Of a stretch of 64,000 bases of DNA, positions 10,264 through 27,172 are shown piece after piece. The first letter of the stretch is position 1. Every line of letters starts with the position of its first letter. Source of the DNA: a virus. Lineage: Duplodnaviria; Heunggongvirae; Uroviricota; Caudoviricetes. Under the pieces are notes generated by a model, which saw only the letters and a list, made by a program, of their open reading frames with translations, had not been told where the DNA came from and ran no database searches. The position numbers and the translations under genes were made by a program. The stretch is from IMG/VR virus record IMGVR_UViG_3300042401_001499. One strand, written 5' to 3'.

Positions 10264-10276
10264 AATAATTAAATTA

Positions 10277-10324: not shown

Positions 10325-10329
10325 ACGTT

Positions 10330-10620: not shown

Positions 10621-11524
10621 GGACTTCTGCAATCCAGTTATAGATTATAACATCAGCAAATCAATATCGTATAGTCAAACTCTAGCATACAATACTTGTC
10701 CGCACCAATGGGCATTAAAATATGTTAAAGGACTGCAGGAGTATAAGCCCTCCATTCATACAGTCTTTGGAACAGCCTTACACGAAGTTGTACAGGAATG
10801 GCTAACAGAACTCTATGAAGGGACTGTAAAGAAAGCAACTGAGATGGATCTTGGAGCACTTCTACATGAAAAGCTCTTTAGTATTTATGCTCAAGAAAAA
10901 GATAAGTACGGAAAACATTTCTCTACCTCTGAGCAGTTATCTGAGTTTCATAATGATGGAGTTGAAATATTGAATTACGTACGTAAGAAACGCTCTATTT
11001 ACTTCGGTACCAAGTATTATAAGTTGGTAGGAGTAGAGATTCCTTTGATACATCAAATAGCTGAGAATATTTTCTTCAAAGGATTTATTGATATTGTTCT
11101 CTATGATGAGCAGGATGACAGGTATATCATTTTAGATATCAAAACATCAACCTCAGGATGGAATGATTATGCAAAGAAGGATGATAAAAAGCTAGCACAA
11201 TTACTTCTCTATAAAGAATTCCTAGCAAGACAATTTGATATAGATGTTGATAAGGTAGATGTAAAGTACTTCATCGTAAAGAGAAAAGTACCTGCCGATC
11301 CAGAATATCCAGCCATGGGTAGAAGAGTTCAAGAGTTTGTACCACCTTCAGGAAAAATTAAAAGAGGACAAGCAACCACAGCTCTTACAAAATTTATTGA
11401 CGATGCTTTCGATTCACATGGAAAGTATATTGATAAGGAATATGATAAGAAGCCATCCAAGTCCAATTGTATGTTCTGTGATTTTAAAGGTACAGAGCAT
11501 TGCCATGCAGGTGTTTTGATATAA
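10583..11524 (+). CDS. PD-(D/E)xK nuclease with C-terminal Cys cluster (Cas4 / RecB-family exonuclease-like)
   Basis: GFIDIV ... ILDIKTS core. C-terminal CMFCDFKGTEHCHAG looks like an Fe-S-type Cys cluster. Confidence 0.65.
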   Translation: MAKKILKQVSLIKDFCNPVIDYNISKSISYSQTLAYNTCPHQWALKYVKGLQEYKPSIHTVFGTALHEVVQEWLTELYEGTVKKATEMDLGALLHEKLFSIYAQEKDKYGKHFSTSEQLSEFHNDGVEILNYVRKKRSIYFGTKYYKLVGVEIPLIHQIAENIFFKGFIDIVLYDEQDDRYIILDIKTSTSGWNDYAKKDDKKLAQLLLYKEFLARQFDIDVDKVDVKYFIVKRKVPADPEYPAMGRRVQEFVPPSGKIKRGQATTALTKFIDDAFDSHGKYIDKEYDKKPSKSNCMFCDFKGTEHCHAGVLI

Positions 11525-11559
11525 GGGTATATTTATATATACATATAATTATATAAACA

Positions 11560-11742
11560 ATGAACACAAAAAAATTAACATCGGTTAAGGTAGAAGAGGA
11601 TCTTCTACAAGAATTTAAAGAGCAATGCGTAAGAGATAAATTTTCTTTACAGAAGCTTGTAGACAGAGCAATTTTTCTTTATATTACAGAAGAGAGCTTT
11701 AAACAAAAATTACGCACACAAACAGATATTAAATTAAAATAG
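11560..11742 (+). CDS. Small hypothetical protein (possible ribbon-helix-helix)
   Basis: 60-aa ORF. Weak call. Confidence 0.3.
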   Translation: MNTKKLTSVKVEEDLLQEFKEQCVRDKFSLQKLVDRAIFLYITEESFKQKLRTQTDIKLK

Positions 11743-11746
11743 TTAC

Positions 11747-13189
11747 ATGAAAGAAAAATTTCGTTATGTTAAGAAAGAAGATCGTAAAAAGATACTTCTG
11801 TTATGCGATGATATTAGGATGCATTCCGGTATCGCAACGATGGCTAGAGAGATTGTTGTAGGAACATCTCATCACTTTAACTGGATCAATCTAGGAGCTG
11901 CAATTAACCACCCCGAAGCAGGAAAAGGATTTGACATCTCAGGAGAGGTTAATAGGTTAACAGGGCTAGAAGATTCAGATGTAAAGGTATTGCCTAACAA
12001 TGGTTATGGAGATGCTATGCAAATTAGAGCTTTAATTGCACAAGAAAAGCCAGATGCTATTTTTATCTTTACAGATCCAAGGTACTGGGTATGGTTATTT
12101 GAAATAGAAAGAGAGATTAGAAATGAAATTCCTTTGATGTACTTAAACATTTGGGATGACTATCCAGCTCCTCTTTATAACAAACCGTACTACGAGTCAT
12201 GTGATTTGTTAATGGCAATCTCAAAACAAACTAAAAATATTAATGAAATAGTTTTAGGAGAAGCAGTTGAGAATAAGATTTTAAAATATGTTCCTCATGG
12301 AATAAATGAAGAGCACTTCTTTCCAATGACCTCAGTAGATCAACTTGAGACTTTAGGTCAATTTAAAAAAGACTTATTTCAAGGAAAGGATATCGAATTC
12401 GTAGCATTCTTCAATTCAAGAAACATCAGAAGAAAATCTCCAGGAGATGTAATTCTATCTTATAGAATGTTCTGTGATTTAATCGGAGAAGAGAAAGCTA
12501 AGAAATGTGCTTTAGTAATGCACACACAGGCTGTAGATGAAAACGGTACAGACCTTTATGCAGTAAGAGAAGCAATTTGTGATGAGAGTTATGTAAATGT
12601 ATTCTTCTCACAAGAGAGATTAGATACTCCACAAATTAATTTACTTTATAACATAGCTGATGTAGGATTGCTTATCACTTCAAATGAAGGATGGGGATTA
12701 TCTCTAACTGAGACTATGATGGCAGGTAAAATGATCATAGCCAACGTAACAGGCGGTATGCAAGATCAAATGAGATTTACAGATGAGAATGGTGAGTGGA
12801 TTAACTTCACTCCTGACTTCCCTTCTAACCATAGAGGTACTTATAAAGAGCATGGAGAGTGGGCAGTGCCTGTCTATCCTTCAAACATCTCAATGGTAGG
12901 TTCAGTTCCAACTCCATACATCTTCGATGATAGGTGTGCACCAGAAGACGTAGCTAAAGCTTTAGAAGAGGTTTACAACATGGGGAAAGAAGAGAGAGAT
13001 AGAAGAGGATTATTAGCTAGAGAATGGGTAACATCAGATGAATCAGGAATGTCAGCACGTCAAATGTGTACAAACGTTATTGATGCAATGGATGAGACAT
13101 TTGAAAAGTTTACTCCAAGATCTAGATTTGACCTATATAAAGTAACAGACAGACCAAAAAAATATATCACACATAAATTAATATACTAG
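11747..13189 (+). CDS. Glycosyltransferase, GT-B fold (GT4-like)
   Basis: ITSNEGWGLSLTETMMAGKMIIA matches the GT4 E-x7-E region (EGFGLP..EAMA.G.PVIA). Confidence 0.6.
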   Translation: MKEKFRYVKKEDRKKILLLCDDIRMHSGIATMAREIVVGTSHHFNWINLGAAINHPEAGKGFDISGEVNRLTGLEDSDVKVLPNNGYGDAMQIRALIAQEKPDAIFIFTDPRYWVWLFEIEREIRNEIPLMYLNIWDDYPAPLYNKPYYESCDLLMAISKQTKNINEIVLGEAVENKILKYVPHGINEEHFFPMTSVDQLETLGQFKKDLFQGKDIEFVAFFNSRNIRRKSPGDVILSYRMFCDLIGEEKAKKCALVMHTQAVDENGTDLYAVREAICDESYVNVFFSQERLDTPQINLLYNIADVGLLITSNEGWGLSLTETMMAGKMIIANVTGGMQDQMRFTDENGEWINFTPDFPSNHRGTYKEHGEWAVPVYPSNISMVGSVPTPYIFDDRCAPEDVAKALEEVYNMGKEERDRRGLLAREWVTSDESGMSARQMCTNVIDAMDETFEKFTPRSRFDLYKVTDRPKKYITHKLIY

Positions 13190-13191
13190 TT

Positions 13192-14478
13192 ATGAGTAAA
13201 CCTACATTAGTAGTAAGCTGTCCAGTAGACACTTACTCAGGATATGGAGCAAGAGCAAGAGACTTTGTACAATCAATTATCGATACAGATAAGTACGAAG
13301 TAAAGATCCTATCACAAAGATGGGGAGGTACTAGATTTGGATATCTTAAAGATCATAAGAATGAATCTTTAGCCTCTAGAATTATACCACAACTAACACA
13401 ACAGCCAGACATCTGGATTCAAATTACAGTACCGAATGAATTTCAAAAGGTTGGTAAATACAATATTGGACTAACAGCAGGAATTGAAACTACAATCTGT
13501 GATCCTTCCTGGATTGAAGGATGTAACAGAATGGACTTAGTATTAGTATCAGCACAACATGCTAAGAAAGTATTTGAAGATAGTAAATTCAATATGCAAG
13601 ATTCAAATACAGGACAAGTAACAGGACAGTTAGCACTTAGTACAAAGGTAGAAGTTCTATTTGAAGGAGCTGATATAGAGAAGTATGCACCATTGTCATG
13701 GCCAGTCACATTAGATCTTTCAACTATACCGGAAATGTTCTGCTTCCTAACAGTAGGTCACTGGCTTCAGGGGTCTCTTGGAGAGGATAGAAAGAATATT
13801 GGATACACTATTAAAGCATTCTTAGAAACATTTAAGAATAAAAAAGATCAACCGGCACTTATTTTAAAAGTACAAGCAGGAGCAGGAACCTCTATCATGG
13901 ATAGGGAAGCAGTGTTGGATAAAATTGATGCAATCAGAAAGACAGTAAAGGGAAAGTTACCAAACATTTACGTACTACATGGAGAAATGTCTGATGCTGA
14001 AGTAAATGAACTATACAACCACGGTAAGGTAAAGGCGATGATCTCTTTAACAAAAGGAGAAGGATTTGGAAGACCTCTACTAGAATTTAGTTTAATAAAC
14101 AAACCAATCATAGCTTCAGGATGGTCAGGGCATATTGACTTCCTTGATAATCGATATACAAAACAAATAGGAGGAACTCTTACAAACGTACATCCATCAG
14201 CAGCTGTAGACAAAATGATCTTACAAGAAAGCCAGTGGTTTACACCAGACGATGCTCTTGTAGGAAAAGCTCTTAAGGATGTATTTGAGGATTATAAACC
14301 ATATAAGGAATTAGCCAAAAGACAGGGGTATAAGAGTAGAACTGAGTTCTCGTATGATAAGATGAGAGAGACGCTAGATACTCTTCTAACACAGTACATT
14401 CCTGAATTCCCTAAGCAAGTACAGTTAAAGTTACCTCAACTTAAGAAAATAGAACTACCAAAATTAACTAAAATATAA
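13192..14478 (+). CDS. Glycosyltransferase, GT-B fold (GT4-like)
   Basis: TKGEGFGRPLLEFSLINKPIIAS matches the GT4 signature. Confidence 0.6.
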   Translation: MSKPTLVVSCPVDTYSGYGARARDFVQSIIDTDKYEVKILSQRWGGTRFGYLKDHKNESLASRIIPQLTQQPDIWIQITVPNEFQKVGKYNIGLTAGIETTICDPSWIEGCNRMDLVLVSAQHAKKVFEDSKFNMQDSNTGQVTGQLALSTKVEVLFEGADIEKYAPLSWPVTLDLSTIPEMFCFLTVGHWLQGSLGEDRKNIGYTIKAFLETFKNKKDQPALILKVQAGAGTSIMDREAVLDKIDAIRKTVKGKLPNIYVLHGEMSDAEVNELYNHGKVKAMISLTKGEGFGRPLLEFSLINKPIIASGWSGHIDFLDNRYTKQIGGTLTNVHPSAAVDKMILQESQWFTPDDALVGKALKDVFEDYKPYKELAKRQGYKSRTEFSYDKMRETLDTLLTQYIPEFPKQVQLKLPQLKKIELPKLTKI

Positions 14479-14936
14479 TGGAAGAAAAAATGTCAATCTG
14501 TCCACATTGTGGAGGAAATGCTTGCTATGAACAAGCAGTAACAGAAGAAGTAACAACAAGCTTTTGCTTTGGATGCGGGTATTCAACTTCAACTCTAATG
14601 GTTGAAGGAGGAGATTTAGTAAACAAAACACTAGAAGCATCACCAGAACTTTATAAAGATCTTATGTTTGTAAGTGAAGATAAGAAAGTATGGTTCCCTT
14701 CTACAGTTACTCTTCCAAATAAAGGAATGGTATTCTTAGACGGAACAGCAAAAGAGAATTGGAGATGGGCAGCAGTAACCTCAGTAGAGATTCTAGAAGA
14801 AGAGAAAGCTAAATTTCCAAAAGGTCAGACAACTAAAATGGATATGAAAAATATCAAACATTTTGAGAAAGAAGATTTTATGGAAGCATTAGATGCTATC
14901 AAATTCTTTGATGTAGAAGTTGCTGAATCAGAATAA
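14478..14936 (+). CDS. Zinc-ribbon protein
   Basis: Motifs CPHCGG ... CFGCGY. Start is ATGA-coupled. Confidence 0.4.
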   Translation: MEEKMSICPHCGGNACYEQAVTEEVTTSFCFGCGYSTSTLMVEGGDLVNKTLEASPELYKDLMFVSEDKKVWFPSTVTLPNKGMVFLDGTAKENWRWAAVTSVEILEEEKAKFPKGQTTKMDMKNIKHFEKEDFMEALDAIKFFDVEVAESE

Positions 14937-14954
14937 ATTTCTTATCTTAATAGG

Positions 14955-15572
14955 ATGAAAATAAGTTATGCAATAACAGTTTGTAATGAGTTGGAGGAGA
15001 TTAAACGCTTAGTGACTTTCCTCCTTCTTACTAAACGTAAAGAAGACGAAGTAGTTATTTTATTTGATGAGAAGAACGGAACAGATGAAGTATTTGATTA
15101 CATAGAGTCTCAAGTTTATCACTGTGAAGTATTCTGTGAAAAGTTTGAAGGACACTTTGCTGATTGGAAAAATGAACTTACATCACACTGTACAGGAAAG
15201 TACATCTTTCAAATAGATGCAGACGAACTTCCAACTGAAGACCTTATTGTAAACCTTCCGTACATCTTAGAAGTTAATCAAGATGTAGATGTATTTCTTG
15301 TACCAAGAATTAATACAGTAGAAGGACTAACACTTCAACATATTCAGAAATGGGGATGGAATGTAAATGATAAAGGTTGGGTAAACTTCCCAGACTACCA
15401 ATGGAGAATTTATAGAAATGATCCTAGTATAAAATGGAAGAACAGAGTACACGAAGTACTAGAAGGATTTAAAACATCCACACTACTTCCAGCAGAGGAG
15501 ATGTATTGCCTATATCATCCAAAGACAATCGACAGACAAGAGAAACAGAATAATTATTACGATACATTATAA
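14955..15572 (+). CDS. Glycosyltransferase family 2-like (GT-A)
   Basis: N-terminal YAITVCNE typical of GT2, with DxD-like acidic motifs. Confidence 0.4.
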   Translation: MKISYAITVCNELEEIKRLVTFLLLTKRKEDEVVILFDEKNGTDEVFDYIESQVYHCEVFCEKFEGHFADWKNELTSHCTGKYIFQIDADELPTEDLIVNLPYILEVNQDVDVFLVPRINTVEGLTLQHIQKWGWNVNDKGWVNFPDYQWRIYRNDPSIKWKNRVHEVLEGFKTSTLLPAEEMYCLYHPKTIDRQEKQNNYYDTL

Positions 15573-15579
15573 ATTAGTT

Positions 15580-16890
15580 ATGGATAGTATTTTAAATTTA
15601 GTACAAGAGTACATTACAAAGAAGGATAGCGAGAAGAAATGGGTAGCAGGAGAAGACTTAGTTCAATATGCTGGACCTTACTTCGATGGTCAAGAAGCTC
15701 AAGCGGTTGTTAGGACTATGCTTGAAGGATGGTTAGTTCTAGGAAAAGAAGGAGCAATGTTTGAAAGACGTTTCCCTAAAAAATTAGGGCAGAAGACTGG
15801 AGTCATTGTTAATAGCGGTTCAAGTGCTAATTTACTAATGATGTTAGCCTTAACATCTAAGAGAGGAATGAACTTACCAAAAGGTACAAAAGTAATTACT
15901 CCAATAGCAGGATTCCCTGCAACACTTAGTCCTACTATTCAAGTAGGCTTTACACCAATCTTTGTTGATATTGAATTAGAATCTCTTAATCTAGACTTAG
16001 ATCAAGTAGAGCAAGCATGCATTGATCATCCGGATGCAAAGATAATTACATTTGCTCACGTATTAGGTAATCCACCTAACATGGATCGATTAATGGAAAT
16101 TGTAAACAAATATAATTTAATTCTATTAGAAGACTGTTGTGATGCTTTAGGAACGACATACGATGGTAAGATGTTAGGATCATTTGGTAAAATGTCTTCA
16201 TGCTCATTCTATCCAGCACATCACATTACAATGGGTGAAGGAGGATTTGTAGCTTGTGGAGATGCTCATACAGAAAAGATACTAAGAAGTTTTAGAGACT
16301 GGGGTAGAGGGTGTTTCTGTCAAGGTAAAGCAAATGCTTTAGAATGTGGTTCATGTGGTATTAGATTTAGTAATTGGTTACCAAGTCTTCCTAATGAGAT
16401 CTTTGATCACAAATATACTTATGAAGAGATTGGATACAATTTAAAACCTACAGAGTTACAAGCAGCAATGGGTAATGTTCAGTTAGGTAAGTTAGAAGAG
16501 ATTGGAGTACTGAGAAGAAGAAATCATAAAGCAATTGTTGACATCTTTAAGAAGTATGAAGATAAATTTATCCTTCCTAAAGCTACAGATAAATCAGATC
16601 CAGATTGGTTTGCAGTAGCATTAACATTAAGAGACGGAGTAGGATTTACAAGATCTGAATTCTGTCAATACTTAGAAGCAAATAAGATTCAAACAAGACC
16701 TTACTTTGCAGGTAACATTATGTTACAGCCAGGCTATTCACATTTAATTGATTCAAAAGAAGTTATTGAGAAATATCCAGTATCAAGAAAAGTAACAACA
16801 GATACTTTCTTCTTAGGATGCTCACCAATCATTACATTGGAACAAATAGAATACATTGGAACAATTGTAGATAAATTCTTCAGTAAATAG
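15580..16890 (+). CDS. ddhC: E1-type PMP-dependent, Fe-S NDP-4-keto-6-deoxyhexose 3-dehydrase (DdhC/AscC/RfbH family)
   Basis: DegT/AHBA-synthase fold. The Schiff-base Lys is replaced by His (SFYPAHHITMGEGG), the E1/ColD hallmark. The Cys spacing C-x57-C-x1-C-x8-C (CC ... CFCQGKANALEC) matches the E1 [2Fe-2S] site. Confidence 0.8.
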   Translation: MDSILNLVQEYITKKDSEKKWVAGEDLVQYAGPYFDGQEAQAVVRTMLEGWLVLGKEGAMFERRFPKKLGQKTGVIVNSGSSANLLMMLALTSKRGMNLPKGTKVITPIAGFPATLSPTIQVGFTPIFVDIELESLNLDLDQVEQACIDHPDAKIITFAHVLGNPPNMDRLMEIVNKYNLILLEDCCDALGTTYDGKMLGSFGKMSSCSFYPAHHITMGEGGFVACGDAHTEKILRSFRDWGRGCFCQGKANALECGSCGIRFSNWLPSLPNEIFDHKYTYEEIGYNLKPTELQAAMGNVQLGKLEEIGVLRRRNHKAIVDIFKKYEDKFILPKATDKSDPDWFAVALTLRDGVGFTRSEFCQYLEANKIQTRPYFAGNIMLQPGYSHLIDSKEVIEKYPVSRKVTTDTFFLGCSPIITLEQIEYIGTIVDKFFSK

Positions 16891-16891
16891 T

Positions 16892-17737
16892 ATGAAAAAA
16901 TTTGTAATAAGTACACATGGGTTTGATATGGGAATAGGAGGCTTAAAGGTTTTACATAAACTTTGTCACCTTCTAAATGAAAATGGATACGACGCATATC
17001 TAATACCAGTAAATTTTAATGAACCATTCGGCATGTATGAGGGGTATAATACCAAAATGATTACACAAGACATACTAGATAATCTGGAAGAGGCCATAGT
17101 AGTGTACCCTGAAAGCTGGAACGGTAACTACCTCAATGCACCAAACGTAGTTAGGTGGATGATAGGACCTCCTACCAAGGATGTTGCTGCTACATGGTCT
17201 AGCAAGGACCTATGGTTTTGGTATATTCCTTTTTATAAGTCTTCTGAGTTTACTAAGCATTTAGAAAATCAACTGTATATAGGAGAGCAGCATAGGGATA
17301 TCTTTTTTAATAGAAACTTAGAAAGGACTATTACTAGTTGGACTTTAAGAAAAGCTCAAGGGTTAGTACAAGAAGTAAATTACAAACACCCTAAGGATAG
17401 TTTGTTTCTTCCGTATCATGCAGCAGGAGATTTAGCCTCTCTTTCTGATATATTTAATAGATCTAAAGCATTCTACTGCTACGATACATATACCTACTTA
17501 ACAATACAGAGCCTACTATGCGGTACAGAGGCCATAGTGCTTCCAAATAGTTGGACCGAGAAAGAACATTTTCTAAAAGGATTTGCACTAAGCAAGTATG
17601 TAGCCTATGGAATAGACGATCTACCCAGAGCCAGAAGTATCCGTAATGAATTTTTAGAAGAAGTAGAAGAGATTGAAACATTAACAATAAAACAGTTACA
17701 TGAATTTACAGAAAAATGCTCTACCTACTTTAGCTGA
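16892..17737 (+). CDS. Hypothetical protein in the sugar island
   Basis: 281-aa ORF with no clear motif. Confidence 0.35.
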   Translation: MKKFVISTHGFDMGIGGLKVLHKLCHLLNENGYDAYLIPVNFNEPFGMYEGYNTKMITQDILDNLEEAIVVYPESWNGNYLNAPNVVRWMIGPPTKDVAATWSSKDLWFWYIPFYKSSEFTKHLENQLYIGEQHRDIFFNRNLERTITSWTLRKAQGLVQEVNYKHPKDSLFLPYHAAGDLASLSDIFNRSKAFYCYDTYTYLTIQSLLCGTEAIVLPNSWTEKEHFLKGFALSKYVAYGIDDLPRARSIRNEFLEEVEEIETLTIKQLHEFTEKCSTYFS

Positions 17738-18728
17738 GTTTAGCTTCTTGATCGTAACTGCAGCAAGAGATGAGAATAGACTAAGAGAAGCCTACAGGTC
17801 AATAAGGCTACAATACCCGGAAAATGAAATAGTAGTAGTATATGATAACACTGGTGTTTTATTACTAAATAGAGAAGATATAAACCTACTGGAGATTCCA
17901 ACTTCGGAAAGAGTGTATGTTAGTAGGGGATATAATATAGCATTAAAAAACTGCTCTAAGCCATATTTTGTATTTCTACATGATGATACTTTTATTGCTC
18001 CTAACTTTCTAGAAAACATATTACCCCATATAAGCGAAAGTCAGTTTTGTAACTTCACTGCAATAGAGCCTCCAGTATTTGGCAACATCGATTCAGCAAC
18101 AGCACCAATTAGGGATTTTGGTAGAAGCTTAGATACGTTTGTAGTAGAGAACTTTAATAAATATACAGAAAAGTATGTACAGACCTTAGAACACAGAACA
18201 GTAGAATCTCCTTTTGGAGGATTTTTTATGGTGGGAAGTACTAAGAGTATATTAAGTATAGGAGGATTTGATGAAACCTTTCAACCCTATTTCTTTGAAG
18301 ACAGTGACTTAATGGTACGGCTACACCTAGCAAACTTTAGGTTTATACAGGTACTAGATAGTTTAGTATATCATATGGTAAGCCTAACCTCTAGAGGAAC
18401 TCCGGAGAGTAGGGTAGCTGAGAGTATCACTCATAAGTTGTTTGTTAAGAAATGGAAGGTAGAATTCAATTACTTCAGACAGTATACAATGTCAGCAGGT
18501 ATTCCATATAAGAAGATACCAGTCTTAATTAAACACACAAACTGTAGTGAATCATTACAAGAGTACCTATCCTTAATAAGTGAACCTAGTACAGTAGAGC
18601 TAATAGTAGACGGACTGCAAATATCTCAAGAAGATGTAGGATATATACAATCATTACCGTATATTATACAGGATACAATACTATCAGGTAGCTACCAACT
18701 GGGAAGTATGCAACTAAATTTTAACTAA
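17700..18728 (+). CDS. Glycosyltransferase family 2-like
   Basis: VVVYDN ... LHDDTFIAP (DxD) GT-A pattern. Confidence 0.4.
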   Translation: MNLQKNALPTLAEFSFLIVTAARDENRLREAYRSIRLQYPENEIVVVYDNTGVLLLNREDINLLEIPTSERVYVSRGYNIALKNCSKPYFVFLHDDTFIAPNFLENILPHISESQFCNFTAIEPPVFGNIDSATAPIRDFGRSLDTFVVENFNKYTEKYVQTLEHRTVESPFGGFFMVGSTKSILSIGGFDETFQPYFFEDSDLMVRLHLANFRFIQVLDSLVYHMVSLTSRGTPESRVAESITHKLFVKKWKVEFNYFRQYTMSAGIPYKKIPVLIKHTNCSESLQEYLSLISEPSTVELIVDGLQISQEDVGYIQSLPYIIQDTILSGSYQLGSMQLNFN

Positions 18729-18755
18729 ATAACATAAAAAGATAATTTTATAAAG

Positions 18756-19712
18756 ATGAAAAAAGTAGTTTACGTTACCGGTTGTTTAGGATTTATTGGA
18801 TCCTACGTAACAAGGAAGTGTTTAGATAGAGGATGGTACGTTAAGGGAGTTGATAAGAAGACCTATGCAGCTAATAAAGACTTATTAAAAGAGTTTAAAG
18901 AGTATGAAAACTTTTCATTTGTAGATTGTGATATAAATGATTTGAAGTTCCTATATGACTGTGACTATATAATTAATACAGCAGCTGAGACTCATGTAGG
19001 AAACTCTATAATGGATTCGGATGTATTTGTACATTCAAATGTAAATGGAGTTCACAATCTACTAGAGTTAATAAAAAATCATAGAGGAGAGAATGCTACT
19101 AAGCCTACACTCCTTCACTTTAGTACAGACGAAGTTTATGGAGATATCGAAGAAGGAGAGCATATCGAGACTGACATACTTAAACCATCTAATCCATACT
19201 CAGCTACTAAAGCTGCAGCAGATATGCTAATAACAGCTTGGGCAAGAACTTACAAACTTCCTTATATTATAATAAGGCCAACAAACAATTACGGAATAGG
19301 GCAGTATGTAGAGAAGTTAATACCTAAAGCCTGTAAGTACTTACGACTTGGTAAAAAGATTCCTCTACACAATAACGGTACTCCAATTAGAAACTGGCTC
19401 CATGCCCAGGATACAGCTGAGGCTGTAATTAGAATTATTGAATCAGGAGTGCAGAATGAAATCTATAATATTTGTGGAGGATTTGAGCAAACTAATTTGG
19501 ATACTATTAAAAAAGTTCTTATATTGTACTATAAGGATTTAGGAGTAGACATAGAAGCTAACTTAGACCTAAAATGTAATAGACAAGGACAAGATGTTAG
19601 GTATGCCTTAAATGATGATAAATTAAGAGCATTAGGATGGAAACCTACAATTGACTTTGACTTGGAATTAAAAAATGTTGTAGAATATTATAGAGAAAAA
19701 TTCATATGGTAA
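18756..19712 (+). CDS. rfbB: NDP-hexose 4,6-dehydratase (RfbB-like extended SDR)
   Basis: Rossmann motif VTGCLGFIGS. FSTDEVYG and catalytic PYSATKAAADM (YxxxK), followed by NNYGIGQYVEKLIP, closely match dTDP/CDP-glucose 4,6-dehydratases. Confidence 0.75.
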   Translation: MKKVVYVTGCLGFIGSYVTRKCLDRGWYVKGVDKKTYAANKDLLKEFKEYENFSFVDCDINDLKFLYDCDYIINTAAETHVGNSIMDSDVFVHSNVNGVHNLLELIKNHRGENATKPTLLHFSTDEVYGDIEEGEHIETDILKPSNPYSATKAAADMLITAWARTYKLPYIIIRPTNNYGIGQYVEKLIPKACKYLRLGKKIPLHNNGTPIRNWLHAQDTAEAVIRIIESGVQNEIYNICGGFEQTNLDTIKKVLILYYKDLGVDIEANLDLKCNRQGQDVRYALNDDKLRALGWKPTIDFDLELKNVVEYYREKFIW

Positions 19713-21460
19713 AAGTAAGTGATGTAATCGTTCAATACCTTAAAGCTAATAAGATAGAGATTGTATTTGGAATAATTGGCTCAGCTAATTCTCACATATT
19801 CAATTCGATATTAGAAGAAGGAAGTATCAAATTGGTATCGGTACATCATGAACAAGCCGCTGTAATGGCTATGGGAGCTTATTACCGTTCAACCGGAAAG
19901 ATGGCTGTTGCATTAGTAACAGCAGGAGGAGGAGCATCAAATGCTTCAACAGGAATTCTTTCCAACTGGGCTGACTCCATTCCAGGAATAACTATCTCAG
20001 GACAAGAACAATCCTACTACTTAGCTGAATATAAAGATATGAGAATGTTTGGAGTACAAGGTTATGATGCAACTAAAGCATATGAAAACTGTACTAAAAT
20101 GTCTTATGTACTTACAGAAAATACCTTACATTCAATAATGCCTTTTGCATTTGCTTTAACACAAGAAGGTAGACCAGGGCCAGTATTCCTGGAAGTACCT
20201 TTCGATGTTCAAAGTAAAATGATAGAAGAAGTAGAAATAAAAGTAACTCCAATTGTAGAAATATACCCTGAGACTTCTTCTGATACAGACTATATCCTCT
20301 CTGCACTTTCACAAGCAGAGCGACCAGTTATACTAGGAGGTCACGGCGTTAAGCTAGCTAAAGCAGAAGAATTATTTAAACAATTTGTAGGAGACTATAA
20401 CATACCAACAGTATTAAGCTGGTCAGCAGTAGACTTACTTGATGATAATGATCCTAACTATTTCGGAAGACCAGGAGTACAGGGTCAGAGAGCAGCTAAC
20501 TTTATAGTACAGAACTCTGATTTACTAATTGTATTAGGAAGCAGACTATCATTACTTCAGACAGGCTACAAAAGAGAAGACTTTGCTCCATATGCTAATA
20601 TCATTCATGTTGATGTAGATGATACAGAAATTAATAAGTTCAACGGAAAGAATATAAAAGCAGATGTAGGAGAATTACTTACAAGTTTAAATTCTAAATG
20701 GAAAGCTGAGATTGAAATAGAGGAATGGATACAATACTGTAATCAAATTAAAGAAAAGTATCCTTTAGTAATGCCTGAGCATTTAGCAGACCCTACCAAT
20801 TCATATACATTTATTGATAAATTCTCACAAAAAGTATCGGACAATTATACAATCGTTACTGATATGGGAACAGCTTTATTAAGTGGATTCTATGGATGGA
20901 GAATTAAACCTAACCAAAAGATGTTTACCTCTCTAGGATTAGGAGAGATGGGATATGGATTAGCAGCAGCAGTTGGAGCTGGATTTGGAGAAAGACCAGT
21001 GATGTGTTTAAATTGTGATGGAGGTATGATGATGAACATACAAGAGTTACAAACAATTAAGACACATAACCTTCCAGTAAAGATTATCATATTCAACAAT
21101 GACGGATACTTAATGATCAAACATACTCAGAATATGTTATTTAAAGGAGCACGTACTTGTGTTGACAAAGAGACAGGAGTAACACTTCCTGATTATAAAA
21201 AAGTAGCACATGCATTTGATTTTGAATACTTCACAGAAGATAACGTAGATGACTTCTTAGCATTTGAAGGCCAGGCTATCATGGAAGTATTTATGGATCC
21301 AAATCAAGAATTTATTCCTAAGGTAAGAGGAATGAAGCTAGAAGATAGTACAATCCAAGCAGGACTATTAGAGGAGATGTCTCCACTTCTTCCGTTAGAA
21401 GAAATAGAACAAGCAATGGTTGCAGGAATTAACCAAAGAAGTAAAACAGTTGTAAGATGA
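19706..21460 (+). CDS. ThDP-dependent enzyme of the acetolactate-synthase family (YerE-like sugar C-branching enzyme candidate)
   Basis: 584 aa. ThDP motif GDG-x~26-NN (CDGGMMMN ... IIFNNDGY). Located inside a deoxysugar cluster. Confidence 0.7.
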   Translation: MVKVSDVIVQYLKANKIEIVFGIIGSANSHIFNSILEEGSIKLVSVHHEQAAVMAMGAYYRSTGKMAVALVTAGGGASNASTGILSNWADSIPGITISGQEQSYYLAEYKDMRMFGVQGYDATKAYENCTKMSYVLTENTLHSIMPFAFALTQEGRPGPVFLEVPFDVQSKMIEEVEIKVTPIVEIYPETSSDTDYILSALSQAERPVILGGHGVKLAKAEELFKQFVGDYNIPTVLSWSAVDLLDDNDPNYFGRPGVQGQRAANFIVQNSDLLIVLGSRLSLLQTGYKREDFAPYANIIHVDVDDTEINKFNGKNIKADVGELLTSLNSKWKAEIEIEEWIQYCNQIKEKYPLVMPEHLADPTNSYTFIDKFSQKVSDNYTIVTDMGTALLSGFYGWRIKPNQKMFTSLGLGEMGYGLAAAVGAGFGERPVMCLNCDGGMMMNIQELQTIKTHNLPVKIIIFNNDGYLMIKHTQNMLFKGARTCVDKETGVTLPDYKKVAHAFDFEYFTEDNVDDFLAFEGQAIMEVFMDPNQEFIPKVRGMKLEDSTIQAGLLEEMSPLLPLEEIEQAMVAGINQRSKTVVR

Positions 21461-22314
21461 AAATAAAAGTAGCAATTATTGGTACAGGTAATATCGGAAC
21501 AGATTTATTACTCAAAGCCTTAAAGACAGACTTCATGGATGTAGTAGCATTCGTAGGTCGTAGATTAGATTCAGATGGAATGCTAACAGCTAAGAAATAC
21601 AATGTACTGATATCAGATCAAGGTATTCAATACTTTATTGACAATCCAAAGTGTTGTGATGTAGTTTACGATTGTACCTCAGCAGCAGATGCTATTGAAC
21701 ATGCTAAGATATTTAAAGACCAGGAAATAAAAGTAATTGACCTAACACCAGCCAAGGTAGGAGATATGTGCGTACCAGATGTTAACTCTGAGATTATATT
21801 GACAGATGATAATGTAAATATGATTACTTGCGGAGGACAAGCTTCAATGCCTATGCTTCATTTACTATCAAAAGAGTGCATAGGATTAGAATACATCGAA
21901 GTAGTATCACAGATTGCATCTAAGAGTGCAGGAATGGCTACAAGAATAAACGTAGACAATTACATTCAAACAACTCAGAAAGCTATAACAAAGTTTACTG
22001 GTTGTTCAAATAACAAAGTAATACTAAACCTTAACCCTGCTGAACCCTGTGTTGATATGCAGACAACTATCTTTATCAAAGCAAAGAAAGTTAATTTTGA
22101 AAATCTAACAGAGAAGGTCTTAGAAAAAATTGAAGAGTTAAGAACATACATTCCATATTACGAAATGGTGCTTCCTCCAACTATGAACGATAATGGTGTA
22201 GTTGTAATGAGTATTAAAGTAAGAGGTACAGGAGACTATCTTCCAGCCTATGCTGGTAACCTGGATATTATTAACTGTGCAGCAATTAAAGTAACAGAAA
22301 GATTGGTAAAATGA
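21457..22314 (+). CDS. Acetaldehyde dehydrogenase (acetylating), DmpF/MhpF family
   Basis: N-terminus MKIKVAIIGTGNIGTDLLLK closely matches DmpF/MhpF. ~290 aa. Confidence 0.75.
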   Translation: MKIKVAIIGTGNIGTDLLLKALKTDFMDVVAFVGRRLDSDGMLTAKKYNVLISDQGIQYFIDNPKCCDVVYDCTSAADAIEHAKIFKDQEIKVIDLTPAKVGDMCVPDVNSEIILTDDNVNMITCGGQASMPMLHLLSKECIGLEYIEVVSQIASKSAGMATRINVDNYIQTTQKAITKFTGCSNNKVILNLNPAEPCVDMQTTIFIKAKKVNFENLTEKVLEKIEELRTYIPYYEMVLPPTMNDNGVVVMSIKVRGTGDYLPAYAGNLDIINCAAIKVTERLVK

Positions 22315-23309
22315 GAAAAGTAATCATAACAGATTCAAGTCTTAGAGATGGAAATCATAGTGTTAAGCATACTATAAGTTTAGATAGTATAGCAAGGTAT
22401 TGTCAATTTGCTGATAGAGCTGGCGTACCAATTGTAGAGGTAGGTCACGGAAATGGATTAGCAGCATCCTCTTTACTTGTAGGTAAGTCTGTTAATACAG
22501 ATGAAGAGATGCTAACAACTGCTAGAAAGAATCTAAAGAATTCTAAACTAGGAATTCATATGATACCAGGACTAGCAACACTAGAACATACTAGGAGAGC
22601 AATTGATCTAGGAGTAGATGTAGTGAGAGTGGCAACACATTGTACAGAAGCAACACTATCTAAATCTCATATTGAAGCACTAGCAAAAGCAAATGTAGAA
22701 GTGTTCGGAGTATTGATGATGAGTGCTTTAATTACTCCTCTAGAATTATTAGAGCAAGCTAAAATAATGGAAGGGTATGGAGCTAAGGCTATTATTATAA
22801 TGGACTCTACAGGAACATATCTACCATTTGATGTACAGCAGAGAATTGCCCTACTGACAAGCAATCTAAATATTGCAGTAGGATTTCATGCTCATAACAA
22901 CTTAGGATGTGCAGTAGCCAATTCCCTAACAGCAGTAGAATTTGGAGCAGACTATATTGACGGATGTATTAGAGGATTTGGAGCCGGAGCAGGAAATGCA
23001 CCACTAGAAATACTTATACCAGTATTAGAGCAAACAGGCTTTCAAGTAGGAATAAACTTCCAGGAGACGATCAAAGAAGCTGATAATGTAATGAACTACT
23101 TAGTTCCATCAGCTCCTATCACAACTCCAATTAACATACTAACCGGACTTAAGAAACTATTCTCAGGATTTGAAAAGCCTATCGTAAGTGCTTCTAAGTT
23201 GTATGGAATAGAATATTCATCTCTTATCTTTGAATTAGGTAATAGAAAGTTGGTAGCCGGGCAAGAAGATCTTATCTTAGAGGTAGCACAGAAGCTAAAG
23301 AAGAGATAG
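22311..23309 (+). CDS. 4-hydroxy-2-oxovalerate aldolase-like (DmpG/MhpE DRE-TIM family)
   Basis: SLRDGNHSVKH and VEVGHGNGL motifs of the HOA aldolase family. Overlaps and pairs with the DmpF homolog. Confidence 0.75.
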   Translation: MRKVIITDSSLRDGNHSVKHTISLDSIARYCQFADRAGVPIVEVGHGNGLAASSLLVGKSVNTDEEMLTTARKNLKNSKLGIHMIPGLATLEHTRRAIDLGVDVVRVATHCTEATLSKSHIEALAKANVEVFGVLMMSALITPLELLEQAKIMEGYGAKAIIIMDSTGTYLPFDVQQRIALLTSNLNIAVGFHAHNNLGCAVANSLTAVEFGADYIDGCIRGFGAGAGNAPLEILIPVLEQTGFQVGINFQETIKEADNVMNYLVPSAPITTPINILTGLKKLFSGFEKPIVSASKLYGIEYSSLIFELGNRKLVAGQEDLILEVAQKLKKR

Positions 23310-24221
23310 ATGAACATATTAATTACAGGAGGGAATGGATTCTTAGGATCTAATATTGTTAGAAAGCTGTTAAAGGAAGGACATAGTGTCTACTTATTTT
23401 CAAACAATACAAATAACATAGAGGACATACTTCCTCAAGTTTTATTTGACTACAGTAGTACTAATTCACTACCTATGTTTAAGAAGAAAATAGAGACATT
23501 TTCACCAGACATAGTAATACATTGTGGATGGAGTGGAGGAAATAGTTACGCAGATACTAATAGTATGGATCAGTTTTATGAAAATGTAGATCCAAGTATC
23601 TCTCTACTACAACTACTAAGTAAGCTCAAGAAGAAGCCTAAGTTTGTAGGTTTTGGAAGTTTTGCAGAGTATGGAGAGATGTTCAATCCAGTAAGTGAAA
23701 CAGTCCAAGAAGTTCCTACAAACCTATATGGACTATCAAAGTATACTTTTAAGAAGTATAGTGAAATGATATGCAACCAACACAGTATAGAATGGGTATG
23801 GATAAGGCCCTGCTACGTTTACGGACCAGGAGATGTAAGCACAAGACTTCTTCCTAGTATAATTAAGAAGTTCTTAAGGAATGAAGCAGTAATACTTGAT
23901 GAGTGTACTTCTACTGTAGATTATATTTATATAGATGATTTTGTTAATTCAATTTATTTTCTTATATTAACAAAACATACAGGAGTGTACAACATATGCT
24001 CAGGAAAACAATACAAGATAAGAGATATAGTTGAGCAAGTTCATAAACAAATTGAGAGTAGTAGTACTATTGAATTTAGTGCTAATCTAAAAAGAACCTC
24101 TACATACTCTTATGTATGTGGGGACAGACGAAAGATTGATGCTGTTGCAAATATTCCAACTCAGATATCTTTAAATGAAGGATTAGTTAAAACAATAACA
24201 TATTATAAAGTAAGAAAATGA
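23310..24221 (+). CDS. NAD(P)-dependent SDR epimerase/reductase (sugar ketoreductase candidate)
   Basis: ILITGGNGFLGSNIV Rossmann motif and a YxxxK-type core (YGLSK). Confidence 0.6.
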   Translation: MNILITGGNGFLGSNIVRKLLKEGHSVYLFSNNTNNIEDILPQVLFDYSSTNSLPMFKKKIETFSPDIVIHCGWSGGNSYADTNSMDQFYENVDPSISLLQLLSKLKKKPKFVGFGSFAEYGEMFNPVSETVQEVPTNLYGLSKYTFKKYSEMICNQHSIEWVWIRPCYVYGPGDVSTRLLPSIIKKFLRNEAVILDECTSTVDYIYIDDFVNSIYFLILTKHTGVYNICSGKQYKIRDIVEQVHKQIESSSTIEFSANLKRTSTYSYVCGDRRKIDAVANIPTQISLNEGLVKTITYYKVRK

Positions 24222-24859
24222 AAAACGAAGTTGTAGTAAAAGAAGGAGGCTGGATTTGGCCTAAGAAGGATGAGAGAAGTTGGCAAGGTCAAATAAAACA
24301 AAAGGAACTAGCTCAATACATACTTCCCTATGTAGTGAAGAATGATGTAATGATACAAGCAGGTGGTAATTGTGGATTCATTCTAAGTACCTTTGTTCCC
24401 TACTTTAACAACATCTATACATTTGAACCAGATCCAATAAACTTTTATTGCTTGAATCAGAATGTTACAGCACCAAGTGTTATTAAGATGCAATGTTGCT
24501 TAGGAAAAGAAAGTACACCAGTAGCTGTACAACATCTACAAAGAGGTATAGGAGAGGGAATAGACATAGGGGGAGTACATGTTAGTGGAGTAGGGTTTAC
24601 TCCTACTATTGTTATCGACAAATTAAACCTACAGGCATGTGACTTAATTCAACTAGACATAGAAGGGTATGAACTCAATGCACTACTGGGTGCAGTAGAG
24701 ACTATTAAGAAATATAAACCTGTACTATGTATAGAGTTCTGTGAAAACTGGTTAAATAGGTATGAAGCTACGTCAGATAGTGTTGAAACTCTTTTAGTTG
24801 AATTAGGATACAAACATGTAGAATCGTACCAAGCAGATAGAATTTACATAACACAATAG
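24218..24859 (+). CDS. FkbM-family methyltransferase
   Basis: IQAGGNCGF ... YTFEPDPINFYCLNQN matches the FkbM domain signature. Confidence 0.55.
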   Translation: MKNEVVVKEGGWIWPKKDERSWQGQIKQKELAQYILPYVVKNDVMIQAGGNCGFILSTFVPYFNNIYTFEPDPINFYCLNQNVTAPSVIKMQCCLGKESTPVAVQHLQRGIGEGIDIGGVHVSGVGFTPTIVIDKLNLQACDLIQLDIEGYELNALLGAVETIKKYKPVLCIEFCENWLNRYEATSDSVETLLVELGYKHVESYQADRIYITQ

Positions 24860-24877
24860 GTTACATATATACATACA

Positions 24878-26155
24878 ATGGAAAATTCAATTAGTTTTTG
24901 CATCAATACAGCAGTAGATGAACTACCTTATTTAAAACTACTAATGAAGTCGTTAAAAGAAAATCTTAAGTACGACCACCACGAGGTAATTGTGTTTGTT
25001 GATTCTGATAATCAAAAAACCTTCGAATGGCTGACTACTCAAAAGTTAGAGTTTAAGAATCTAAAAATACTTAAAAACATACTCCCAGTATGTTATGGCC
25101 CTATTAGGAATATAAATGAAATGTTTAAATTTGCTTCTCATGAAATAGTTTCTTACCTACAGTCTGATATGGTTGTTTCTAGAAACTATGATGAGTATCT
25201 CTTAAAGCATATTAAACCTAATACGATACTATCTAGCACTAGAATTGAACCACCACTACATGGACCAGGTCCTGAGAAGCATACTGTGAACTTTGGACTA
25301 ACTCCCTCTGAGTTTGATTATGAGGGGTTTTTAAACTACTGTGACATATGTAGAGAAGATAAAACAACAAGTTACTATTTTGCACCATTTACTTTATATA
25401 GAGAGATTTGGAACACTATAGGAGGGCAAGACAACACCTTTAGACGGTCAAGAGATGACTCTGATATTTTAAATAGGTTTATACTTTCAGGAGTAGAGAT
25501 TGTTCAAACATGGGAAGCACTGGTATACCATTTTACTTGTACTTCTAGTAGAGGACCGGGCTGGCATGAGCCAAGTAATACAAAGGCACAGGAAAAGTTA
25601 CAACTCCAAGCAAGAGCAGATAAGGTAGAACTTACTAGAATATTTAGAAAGTGGGGAGAATTTAGCCATGGACATCCAACACCGTACTACTATAATATAG
25701 TCTCAGAAATTAATATAGATATAGATATAGGTAACTTAGAGTTATTTAAAAACGTTGAGATGTTTTTTATAAAAAACTACATAACTTCTAAAAAACTATA
25801 TAACGAGTTTATAAATGAGAATGAACATCTATATGCTAATATACTTTACAAGTACTCTCAAGAACAGTGGGAGGAGTACAAGTACATGTGCAACATAGAG
25901 AGATTAGAGGATAGAGTTTGTATAGGAGAACCAGAAGGAGATGTGGTAGTTTCATTTAACCTTAGTAGTATTAACCAAAATACATTTAATAATGTACTAA
26001 GTAAGTTACAACACATAATACACGAAGCAGAACCAGGTGATTATGAATTCGAAGGATTTACTTTCTCAATAAAGAACAAAGAGAATATTATAGAGACTAA
26101 ACTTAAAGTAAACAATCCTGATATAAAACCAGAACATCTATATAAGGTATACTAG
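24878..26155 (+). CDS. Glycosyltransferase family 2-like, with C-terminal extension
   Basis: VIVFVDSDN acidic motif within a GT-A-like N-terminal half. Confidence 0.4.
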   Translation: MENSISFCINTAVDELPYLKLLMKSLKENLKYDHHEVIVFVDSDNQKTFEWLTTQKLEFKNLKILKNILPVCYGPIRNINEMFKFASHEIVSYLQSDMVVSRNYDEYLLKHIKPNTILSSTRIEPPLHGPGPEKHTVNFGLTPSEFDYEGFLNYCDICREDKTTSYYFAPFTLYREIWNTIGGQDNTFRRSRDDSDILNRFILSGVEIVQTWEALVYHFTCTSSRGPGWHEPSNTKAQEKLQLQARADKVELTRIFRKWGEFSHGHPTPYYYNIVSEINIDIDIGNLELFKNVEMFFIKNYITSKKLYNEFINENEHLYANILYKYSQEQWEEYKYMCNIERLEDRVCIGEPEGDVVVSFNLSSINQNTFNNVLSKLQHIIHEAEPGDYEFEGFTFSIKNKENIIETKLKVNNPDIKPEHLYKVY

Positions 26156-26182
26156 AAAATAAACTATTTATAACAAAAACAT

Positions 26183-26533
26183 ATGAGCTTAATCAACGAA
26201 ATAAAAGAGATGCTATCAGAAGTTACCAAAGTAAACTTCAAAGGAAATAAATTTGTCCTTAAGATAGATGTAAATGAAGATCCAAATAAGAAAGGAATTA
26301 AAGTACAATTCCTTCCAACAACATTCTCAGGTATGTCTAAACAACAACAAGACGATATCGCTATGGACTTAGGAGCTAAATTAAATCAAGGATTAGCACC
26401 TCTAGGGTTAGCAGTAGAGAGAGACAGAGAGTTAAAGGATAAGACAATTGTAGGCTTCTTTATCTATATCGAATATCTAGATAAGATTATTATCAATGCT
26501 CTAAATCAAGCAGCACAAACAAGTAACGACTAA
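26183..26533 (+). CDS. Hypothetical protein
   Basis: ORF only. Confidence 0.4.
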   Translation: MSLINEIKEMLSEVTKVNFKGNKFVLKIDVNEDPNKKGIKVQFLPTTFSGMSKQQQDDIAMDLGAKLNQGLAPLGLAVERDRELKDKTIVGFFIYIEYLDKIIINALNQAAQTSND

Positions 26534-26544
26534 ATAAAAAAGAT

Positions 26545-26757
26545 ATGCCACAGTTTTGTTTTTATTCAAAGAATAACCCTACACAAGAACCAGTAGGAGT
26601 TCTACACGCAGCAAGTAGAGAAGAAGCAATAAAATTCTTCTCATTGTCAAAACAATTATCAACAAATGATTTTCTAACAATTTTCGAAGTAAAAAACTAT
26701 ACGTATGGAGCTCAAGAAGGAATTAAGGAAAACGCTAAACAATTACTTAAAGGGTAA
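26545..26757 (+). CDS. Hypothetical protein
   Basis: ORF only. Confidence 0.4.
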   Translation: MPQFCFYSKNNPTQEPVGVLHAASREEAIKFFSLSKQLSTNDFLTIFEVKNYTYGAQEGIKENAKQLLKG

Positions 26758-26779
26758 TATTAGGATAAAAGAAAGAGAT

Positions 26780-27103: not shown

Positions 27104-27114
27104 ATAAGAAAATA

Positions 27115-27151: not shown

Positions 27152-27172
27152 AAATAATAAATTAAAACGGTT

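Follow-up and report, generated by a model that had tools for sequence, protein, structure and literature searches.

A modular island of probable glycan-synthesis genes from an Immutovirus-like Flavobacterium phage, with a predicted pathway to an erwiniose-type branched sugar

Gene content of the island

A stretch of viral DNA of 64,000 nucleotides (hereafter the window; IMG/VR record IMGVR_UViG_3300042401_001499, Caudoviricetes) carries an island of sugar-modifying and glycosyltransferase genes at positions 11747-26155. Fifteen co-directional open reading frames (ORFs), abutting or overlapping on the + strand, make up its 14.4 kb (Table 1). The island is interpreted, with moderate confidence, as a modular, phage-encoded set of glycan-synthesis genes in an Immutovirus-like Flavobacterium phage, which would build an erwiniose-type sugar, tentatively for the virion. 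The description of the sugar pathway and of the modular slot that holds its genes, as read from sequence, is put forward with good confidence.

A first-pass annotation made from the sequence letters had described the same contiguous, co-directional block, which proved real, and its gene calls were borne out nearly throughout by Pfam and NCBIfam. The acetaldehyde dehydrogenase and the aldolase of the island, however, had been left unmentioned. Its overall reading as a glycosylation island for a branched dideoxy sugar is retained here; the two-carbon branch and the exceptional status for the lineage that went with it are not. The whole window is one long + strand gene run with a G+C content of 0.33-0.36, and the island (0.335-0.356) has the same composition as its flanks. 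The catalytic motifs of the key island enzymes are intact. A hydrophobic-segment scan found no membrane segments in the island proteins, and no Pfam family for an initiating phosphoglycosyltransferase, a flippase or ABC transporter, a polymerase or a ligase was found among them.

Table 1. Genes of the island and its left flank, with coordinates in the window and supporting matches (aa, amino acids; NDP and dTDP, nucleoside and thymidine diphosphate; PMP, pyridoxamine phosphate; SAM, S-adenosylmethionine; SDR, short-chain dehydrogenase/reductase; ThDP, thiamine diphosphate)
Feature	Position	Strand	Supporting evidence
Arc-like ribbon-helix-helix protein, 60 aa	11560-11742	+	PHROG phrog_3180 (Arc-like repressor) 9e-7; same place as immuto26A_89
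GT4-family (GT-B) glycosyltransferase, 480 aa, conserved anchor	11747-13189	+	Pfam Glycos_transf_1 3.5e-7; phrog_2170
Second GT4-family glycosyltransferase, 428 aa, conserved anchor	13192-14478	+	Pfam Glyco_trans_1_4, Glycos_transf_1; phrog_2170
Conserved 152-aa protein, N-terminal four-cysteine zinc ribbon	14478-14936	+	
Small GT2-family (GT-A) glycosyltransferase, 205 aa, last anchor gene	14955-15572	+	Pfam Glycos_transf_2 8.8e-9
E1-type PMP/[2Fe-2S] NDP-4-keto-6-deoxyhexose 3-dehydrase	15580-16890	+	NCBIfam RfbH 452 bits vs cut-off 423
Compact GT-B-fold glycosyltransferase, 281 aa, no Pfam match, window-specific two-gene module	16892-17737	+	
GT2-family glycosyltransferase, 342 aa, second gene of window-specific module	17700-18728	+	Pfam Glycos_transf_2 2.3e-10
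NDP-glucose 4,6-dehydratase, dTDP-glucose type	18756-19712	+	TIGR01181 4e-89; PDB 2HUN 1e-67
YerE-like ThDP carboligase, JanthE subtype, CDG cofactor motif	19706-21460	+	PDB 8RPH (JanthE) 6e-150; 5AHK 2e-74
Acylating acetaldehyde dehydrogenase (DmpF/BphJ/ErwJ-like)	21457-22314	+	TIGR03215 322 bits vs cut-off 282; PDB 7Z3S 7e-73; 1NVM_B 5e-57
Class II pyruvate aldolase / 4-hydroxy-2-oxovalerate aldolase (DmpG/BphI/ErwI-like)	22311-23309	+	TIGR03217 342 bits vs cut-off 286; PDB 8IH7 7e-73; 1NVM_A 1e-66
Extended SDR, predicted side-chain ketoreductase (ErwF/YerF role)	23310-24221	+	Pfam Epimerase 2.5e-37; GGNGFLG, YGLSK motifs
FkbM-family SAM methyltransferase	24218-24859	+	Pfam Methyltransf_21 8e-12; TIGR01444 45 bits vs cut-off 38
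GT2-family glycosyltransferase, 425 aa, last island gene	24878-26155	+	Pfam Glycos_transf_2 5e-7

Predicted pathway to a branched 3,6-dideoxyhexose

The ThDP enzyme is predicted to add the branch at C4 of the sugar. All three ThDP domains are present, and acetolactate synthases match it far more weakly (about 1e-67 or less) than does JanthE, its best solved relative; the first-pass assignment to the YerE-like enzymes of the acetolactate-synthase family stands. Residues 437-439 read CDG in place of GDG, an unusual motif common to JanthE. The dehydrogenase gene overlaps the 3' end of the ThDP gene and is followed by the aldolase gene, and both partner genes accompany the ThDP gene in most of 64 viral loci and in most cellular ones. 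The dehydrogenase has its catalytic Cys125 inside an ITCGGQA motif, and the aldolase keeps its metal and catalytic site (Arg12, Asp13 and His16 of an Arg-Asp-x-x-His motif, with the HAH ligands). Pectobacterium atrosepticum has a like grouping, in which the genes for the YerE-like ThDP enzyme ErwE, the reductase ErwF, the BphI-like aldolase ErwI and the acetaldehyde dehydrogenase ErwJ adjoin one another; ErwE rejects pyruvate and uses (R)-4-hydroxy-2-oxopentanoate to place a four-carbon branch on CDP-4-keto-3,6-dideoxyglucose (CDP, cytidine diphosphate), giving erwiniose (PMC9306805).

The aldolase sequence bears on the stereochemistry of the donor. BphI with Leu87 and Tyr290 is (4S)-specific, and an engineered L87N/Y290F variant is (4R)-specific (PMC3962088). 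Solved catabolic aldolases (DmpG, BphI and others) have Leu and Tyr at these two sites; the phage enzyme has His83 and Phe284 there. Among 99 viral and cellular aldolases from ThDP-sugar loci (L002-L219), Tyr was found in none, the Tyr290 site being occupied by Phe (or His), and 95 carried His at the Leu87 site. The phage aldolase is predicted to be (4R)-selective. As an observation in its own right, His at the first site together with Phe (or His) at the second may mark out, at the sequence level, class II pyruvate aldolases that are naturally (4R)-selective. Because the ThDP gene is directly adjoined by the dehydrogenase/aldolase pair, as in the erwiniose set, and because of these aldolase residues, the predicted branch has four carbons and a (4R)-hydroxy-oxo-acid donor. 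The yersiniose-like two-carbon branch proposed in the first-pass annotation finds no support in a ThDP gene that runs straight into this pair. The SDR encoded next lacks the TDE motif of dehydratases and found only 22-28% matches in cellular loci.

The acceptor sugar would be made by the 4,6-dehydratase and the E1-type dehydrase. The dehydratase, already called RfbB-like in the first pass, has its GxxGxxG, STDEVYG and YSATK motifs in place; it is of the dTDP-glucose rather than the CDP type, as judged from its match to TIGR01181 (Table 1) against 71 bits (1.3e-19) for the CDP-glucose model. Host dTDP-glucose is the likely entry point, given this dehydratase type. Over its whole length, the E1-type dehydrase can be aligned with Yersinia E1 (PDB 3BCX, 4e-102). 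Its His214 aligns with E1 His220, a column that holds Lys in the H220K mutant (3BB8), and its cysteines are spaced Cys187-x57-Cys245-x1-Cys247-x8-Cys256-x2-Cys259. Cys187, Cys245 and Cys247 align with E1 Cys193, Cys251 and Cys253, and Cys256 and Cys259 flank a four-residue insertion at the position of E1 Cys261. The first-pass call of E1, made on the replacement of Lys by His and on exactly this cysteine spacing, thus came through the alignment by which it could have been refuted. The catalytic His and [2Fe-2S] cysteines are shared with E1 (RfbH/DdhC), but the dedicated E3 partner and the CDP-sugar setting of E1 are absent from the window.

No nucleotidyltransferase was found in any frame of the 64-kb window with the nearest relative's enzyme, a fusion of nucleotidyltransferase and HAD-type hydrolase, as query. 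A regular-expression search for the plant-type [2Fe-2S] ferredoxin motif of an E3 partner found none in window ORFs of at least 70 aa, nor in loci L002, L069 and L218. Both absences, noted in the first pass, are upheld within the window. In the nearest relative, a 162-kb IMG/VR contig (L002/L069) whose E1 is 99% identical to that of the window, the sugar-phosphate nucleotidyltransferase-HAD fusion (601 aa; L002 7182-8987) lies just upstream of the dehydratase; since the window is without it, the window cassette is a reduced variant of the relative's. We infer that the nucleotidyltransferase and E3 functions are supplied by the host. General ferredoxin/flavodoxin reductase pairs serve SpnQ, a [2Fe-2S] homologue of E1 whose substrate is a dTDP-sugar (PMC8987622), and by analogy the window E1 probably works with general host reductases.

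In the proposed pathway, the host would provide NDP-glucose, probably dTDP-glucose, which the 4,6-dehydratase would convert to NDP-4-keto-6-deoxyglucose. The E1-type dehydrase would then strip the 3-hydroxyl, with electrons probably delivered through general host ferredoxin/flavodoxin reductases, as for SpnQ. In parallel, acetaldehyde dehydrogenase would reduce acetyl-CoA to acetaldehyde, and the aldolase would couple acetaldehyde with pyruvate to give (4R)-4-hydroxy-2-oxopentanoate. The YerE/JanthE-like enzyme would decarboxylate this donor and transfer the four-carbon unit onto the C4 ketone, and reduction of the side-chain ketone by the SDR would yield an erwiniose-type 3,6-dideoxyhexose branched at C4, to which the FkbM enzyme may add a methyl group. 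Six soluble glycosyltransferases would assemble the oligosaccharide in the cytoplasm, with virion proteins as the favoured acceptor.

The closest known counterpart in gene arrangement and enzyme families, on which the comparison was based (ErwE, ErwF and YerE being used by description only), is the erwiniose cluster of P. atrosepticum SCRI1043 (Steitz et al. 2022, PMC9306805). There too a YerE-like ThDP carboligase adjoins an acylating acetaldehyde dehydrogenase, an NAD(P)H reductase and an aldolase of the BphI/DmpG type, the acceptor (a 4-keto-3,6-dideoxyhexose) is provided for by further genes, and the same four-carbon-branched 3,6-dideoxyhexose is predicted. The two differ in setting (a bacterial lipopolysaccharide locus against a virulent-type phage) and in the dehydratase, which is of CDP type there and of dTDP-glucose type here. 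The window lacks a nucleotidyltransferase and E3, so that its 64 kb do not hold a full route to the acceptor; the cofactor motif of its ThDP enzyme is CDG, as in JanthE, and FkbM and six transferases are attached. The yersiniose A pathway of Yersinia pseudotuberculosis (YerE/YerF, DdhA-D) shares E1-type 3-deoxygenation, ThDP-dependent branching at C4 and side-chain reduction, but YerE acts on pyruvate without an aldolase pair, and the pathway has a dedicated E3 and a CDP-glucose route. Some sister phages look closer to that pathway than the window does. In one of them (L086, 15144-21441), E1 and dehydratase are 97% and 84% identical to those of the window, the ThDP enzyme is of GDG type (34%), and the dehydrogenase/aldolase pair is missing; this is probably a two-carbon-branch (yersiniose-type) sister cassette. 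Loci L084, L087 and L119 have the same arrangement.

Conserved backbone and exchangeable slot

The window is 74-85% identical in DNA sequence to Flavobacterium phage vB_FspM_immuto (hereafter immuto), reaching 85% over the first 3.3 kb of the island and 74% over structural genes. Gene order is shared from DNA polymerase A through the PD-(D/E)XK nuclease, the island, and DksA-like and HNH genes to the baseplate genes, which confirms the earlier statement that the island is phage-borne. The first four genes of the island (two GT4, the 152-aa protein and one GT2) recur in immuto, where a different cassette of aminotransferases, a methyltransferase, an acetyltransferase, an epimerase and transferases comes after them. 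A presence/identity matrix of relatives showed a conserved backbone and a variable interior: the first GT4 occurs in at least 133 viral stretches of IMG/VR at 55-94% identity, and the second is conserved together with it. The island had been called unusual for a Bacteroidetes phage, but with its backbone in a cultured phage and in this many viral stretches the cassette alone differs.

The variable interior was surveyed in eight loci, from the 152-aa gene to the downstream conserved gene. The slot ranged from 3.2 to 15.4 kb and held at least six different gene sets, in which all genes with a Pfam match were sugar-modifying; several had no Pfam match. Homology breakpoints in the DNA comparison coincide with gene boundaries. 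Against immuto, homology stops at 15580 and restarts at 26153; against the nearest relative it covers 11569-16895 and 18735-29000, and the two-gene module at 16896-18734 alone is replaced. The locus thus consists of a conserved backbone (Arc-like gene, two GT4, zinc-ribbon gene and one GT2) followed by a slot with differing sugar cassettes. A separate arrangement was seen on a phage-like 248-kb ENA contig (L218), where a pyruvate-dehydrogenase-E1-like alpha/beta pair (8821-9993) lies immediately upstream of the ThDP-dehydrogenase-aldolase triad; with a 624-aa nucleotidyltransferase and a GT61 enzyme also present, this cassette may hold a second branching system.

Pfam backs two GT4 and three GT2 transferases among the island proteins, and the FkbM and SDR calls of the first pass likewise stand. 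A formerly unannotated ORF of 281 aa has a GT-B fold and brings the transferases to six, at the upper end of the five to six first estimated. Because homologues of the small GT2 occur in giant-virus-like loci, it was considered as a transferase specific for the branched sugar. This idea was rejected: every relative has the gene, regardless of the cassette it carries, and sequence identity does not follow cassette type. Structural searches gave no clue to the function of the 152-aa zinc-ribbon protein, and scanning four unannotated small proteins against Pfam at a lenient threshold (E up to 5) returned nothing usable. The Arc-like gene lies directly upstream of the first GT4, after an AT-rich stretch, and belongs to the conserved left flank; its product may be a regulator of the island, apart from the sugar chemistry. 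Between 10000 and 29000, a sigma-70 promoter scan gave fewer sites than shuffled sequence, Bacteroidota promoters being outside the model, and 13 terminator-like sites were counted against 7.3 in shuffles. The terminator-like stems on the + strand within the island were few, short (5-7 pairs) and weak. A tRNA scan of the window found none.

Some features elsewhere in the window are recorded here. An HNH-endonuclease-like gene just right of the island (27581-28234) and a gene with a T5orf172 (GIY-YIG-related) domain (42811-43443) are possible homing endonucleases. ORFs at 5097-5402 and 5405-7045 have the length and position of immuto GroES and GroEL, an assignment made by synteny only. The region 36000-41000 combines a G+C of 0.29-0.30 with a GC skew of up to 0.29 and few ORFs of at least 100 aa. 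The right end of the window (61000-64000) is richer in G+C, at 0.38-0.39.

Origin, acceptor and competing explanations

At least 120 protein clusters that match the ThDP enzyme at 68-97% identity are all metagenomic, several of them on contigs of about 160 kb; where close homologues are named in public annotation, they appear as "acetolactate synthase" (NCBI: "acetolactate synthase large subunit"). In a scan of one genome per species, loci with ThDP, dehydrogenase, aldolase and E1 genes were found in many bacteria and archaea, and none of the cellular loci recovered by the peptide-pattern scan was from Flavobacterium. Of the cellular ThDP homologues found, the best has 46% identity and comes from outside Bacteroidota. 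In a neighbour-joining tree, 60 of 64 viral ThDP sequences fall in one clade with the window. The YerE-like ThDP enzyme and the DmpG-like aldolase were both absent from genuine phages of the GenBank phage collection; the matches obtained were bacterial genes for acetolactate and isopropylmalate synthases, from records that are contaminated or carry a wrong label, and were rejected. Synechococcus phages S-H68, S-B05 and S-B43 have an annotated E1-like gene, with 42% identity. On a putative giant-virus contig (L055; GVMAG-M-3300023184-178, 70.7 kb), the triad lies at 2624-20613 with FkbM, SDR and DegT genes and beside multi-domain glycosyltransferases of 1,832 and 1,460 aa, on mixed strands. Loci L025, L026 and L037 resemble it, and the ThDP enzymes of these putative giant-virus contigs group with the phage clade. 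All the enzyme families of the island are typical of bacterial O-antigen loci, and the first-pass annotation had named as its refuting case a recently captured host O-antigen fragment, which would be a passenger without phage function. Such an origin is very unlikely, because the cellular copies found reach 46% identity against 97% for viral and metagenomic ones, most of the viral sequences form a clade, and the G+C is uniform with the flanks; the intact catalytic motifs and a module structure kept across many phage contigs also speak against it.

Several points weigh against an erwiniose-type sugar made for the virion. The enzyme activities and the glycan are predictions from gene sequences, and so is the match of the SDR to ErwF. 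The nucleotide on the sugar is deduced from the dehydratase type only, and for E1 itself CDP-sugars are the known substrates. The window is without a nucleotidyltransferase and E3 while the nearest relative has the fusion, and this copy might be incomplete. The collection scans were seeded by a few exact peptides, so moderately close cellular homologues may have been missed, a bias that the tree inherits. O-antigen transferases, too, are known that are soluble or peripheral, a point taken up below with the acceptor. Finally, JanthE accepts pyruvate among many donors in vitro (PMC12188165) and YerE uses pyruvate (PMC9306805), as would the phage enzyme if it formed a yersiniose-type two-carbon branch, the dehydrogenase/aldolase pair then merely supplying pyruvate or clearing acetaldehyde. 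That explanation is thought rather improbable: pyruvate is rejected by ErwE, which has the same gene arrangement (PMC9306805). The residue pair of the phage aldolase is as in (4R)-specific BphI, matching the donor of ErwE. A dedicated two-enzyme supply of pyruvate would be hard to justify in a phage genome; pyruvate is an abundant central metabolite in cells. Sister phages without the pair carry the different, GDG-type ThDP enzyme, which suggests that the pair and the CDG-type enzyme function together.

Virion proteins are favoured as the acceptor, tentatively and at somewhat less than an even chance, because the island proteins have no membrane segments and a DNA acceptor is unlikely. In addition, the three backbone transferases are so strongly conserved as to suggest an acceptor that is itself conserved and encoded by the phage. 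Alternatively, the transferases might work at the inner membrane face on host undecaprenyl-linked O-antigen, capsule or O-glycan precursors, and a host flippase and ligase would export the altered glycan, blocking superinfection or freeing progeny from debris. Bacterial O-antigen GT2 and GT4 transferases are also soluble or peripheral, so the lack of membrane segments would allow a lipid-linked acceptor. Erwiniose, yersiniose and caryophyllose have each been described as constituents of cell-envelope glycans (PMC9306805, PMC12247030), envelope remodelling is the usual interpretation of cyanomyovirus sugar-gene clusters (PMC12801897), and the hypervariable cassette resembles O-antigen loci. Unlike O-antigen or capsule loci of Wzx/Wzy or ABC type, however, the island contains no export, initiation or polymerase genes, nor any ligase or membrane protein. 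According to its annotation, immuto is a myovirus of 160 kb that has lysis genes, no integrase was seen in the stretches read, and a lytic cycle leaves surface remodelling little time. Backbone transferases conserved at 55-94% across many phages fit a phage-encoded acceptor better than strain-variable host glycans, and for the triad on the putative giant-virus contig the host would be a eukaryote. Remodelling of the host envelope is accordingly rated unlikely, though by no means negligible. A glycan placed on a modified phage base to block restriction, mentioned as conceivable in the first pass, is highly improbable. The island does lie among DNA-metabolism genes (polymerase, 2700-5033; PD-(D/E)XK nuclease, 10583-11524), phage transferases are described that can attach glycans of various kinds to DNA (Pyle et al. 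2024, as cited in PMC12619734), and thymidine of phage YerA41 is described as bearing a substituent of about 1 kDa (PMC9023294). Liquid chromatography-mass spectrometry of DNA from immuto, the relative that shares the conserved transferases, nevertheless gave the deoxynucleosides dA, dC and dT with fdPreQ1 replacing dG, and no glycosylated nucleoside (PMC10516641). In further contrast to T4-like DNA glycosylation, the window ORFs that were scanned included no hydroxymethylase-like gene, and the window already encodes a 7-deazaguanine route (DpdN-like formyltransferase, 377-904; QueF, 1433-2359).

Two side observations touch on these matters. The formyltransferase-domain gene stands at the position of DpdN in immuto and is followed by QueF, and this phage probably also swaps dG for a 7-deazaguanine derivative. 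Immuto (L220) is annotated with a C-type lectin domain (10527-11525), a cohesin domain (12691-13422) and an unusually long thymidylate synthase (423 aa; 26884-28155); the lectin could bear on glycan biology.

Glycosylation by soluble enzymes has precedents in other viruses. We know of no mycobacteriophage cluster that encodes a complete rare-sugar pathway. Soluble multi-transferase clusters of lytic viruses have demonstrated roles in virion glycosylation, in mycobacteriophages and giant viruses (PMC12801897, PMC12619734, PMC10117803), and in DNA glycosylation. Mycobacteriophages, as described where their study is cited (Freeman et al. 2023, in PMC12801897 and PMC12619734), resemble the present phage in having soluble transferases in a non-structural region of a lytic phage and glycans made in the cytoplasm; they differ in that their clusters are small and their glycans are demonstrated on capsid and tail-tube C-termini, whereas the target here is deduced. 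In giant viruses, clade-specific sugar clusters glycosylate virion fibrils (PMC10117803). Those of the Megavirinae (Notaro et al. 2022, PMC10117803) likewise combine rare bacterial-like sugar pathways with transferases, in gene sets that differ between relatives, but they belong to eukaryotic viruses and make other sugars (amino sugars, for example), and branched-chain ThDP chemistry is unreported there (PMC10117803); the uncultured giant-virus contigs among the present loci suggest that some carry the triad. Gene clusters for cell wall or lipopolysaccharide occur in the cyanomyoviruses P-SSM2, S-SCSM1 and S-SCSM2R (PMC12801897). These phages, too, are lytic aquatic myoviruses of large size that encode numerous transferases and enzymes of NDP-sugar metabolism, and the E1-like gene noted above is annotated in some phages of this type; they differ from the window in the ThDP enzyme and aldolase, which, as stated, no genuine deposited phage genome contains.

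Acyl-branched sugars such as erwiniose are chemically rare and have hitherto been tied to bacterial cell envelopes, and a 2025 review of the ThDP enzymes involved named viruses as unexplored (PMC12247030). Literature searches on erwiniose or caryophyllose with phage or virus, and on glycosylation in Flavobacterium phages, found nothing relevant. What is new is a full set of branch-forming enzymes in a phage lineage with a cultured relative and in dozens of viral contigs. A rare-sugar pathway of bacterial kind is here combined with a viral glycosylation cluster. Branched-sugar ThDP chemistry is thereby extended to viruses, which become a source of new carboligases and of naturally (4R)-type aldolases for biocatalysis, and a hypervariable phage glycan locus is defined whose target is testable in the immuto system. 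If the virion is the target, exchangeable sugar cassettes would provide antigenic variation of phage surfaces, with a bearing on adsorption, on grazing and particle attachment in water, and on the reading of host range from genomes. It is possible, though a speculation with clearly less than an even chance, that the virions of abundant aquatic phages of Bacteroidota, and of some uncultured giant viruses, are coated with a glycan that is exchanged rapidly in the manner of serotypes and whose outer sugars include ThDP-built branched dideoxyhexoses, the cassette being borne mainly within the virosphere. This would be a viral counterpart of O-antigen variation, using sugars otherwise known from a few bacterial lipopolysaccharides.

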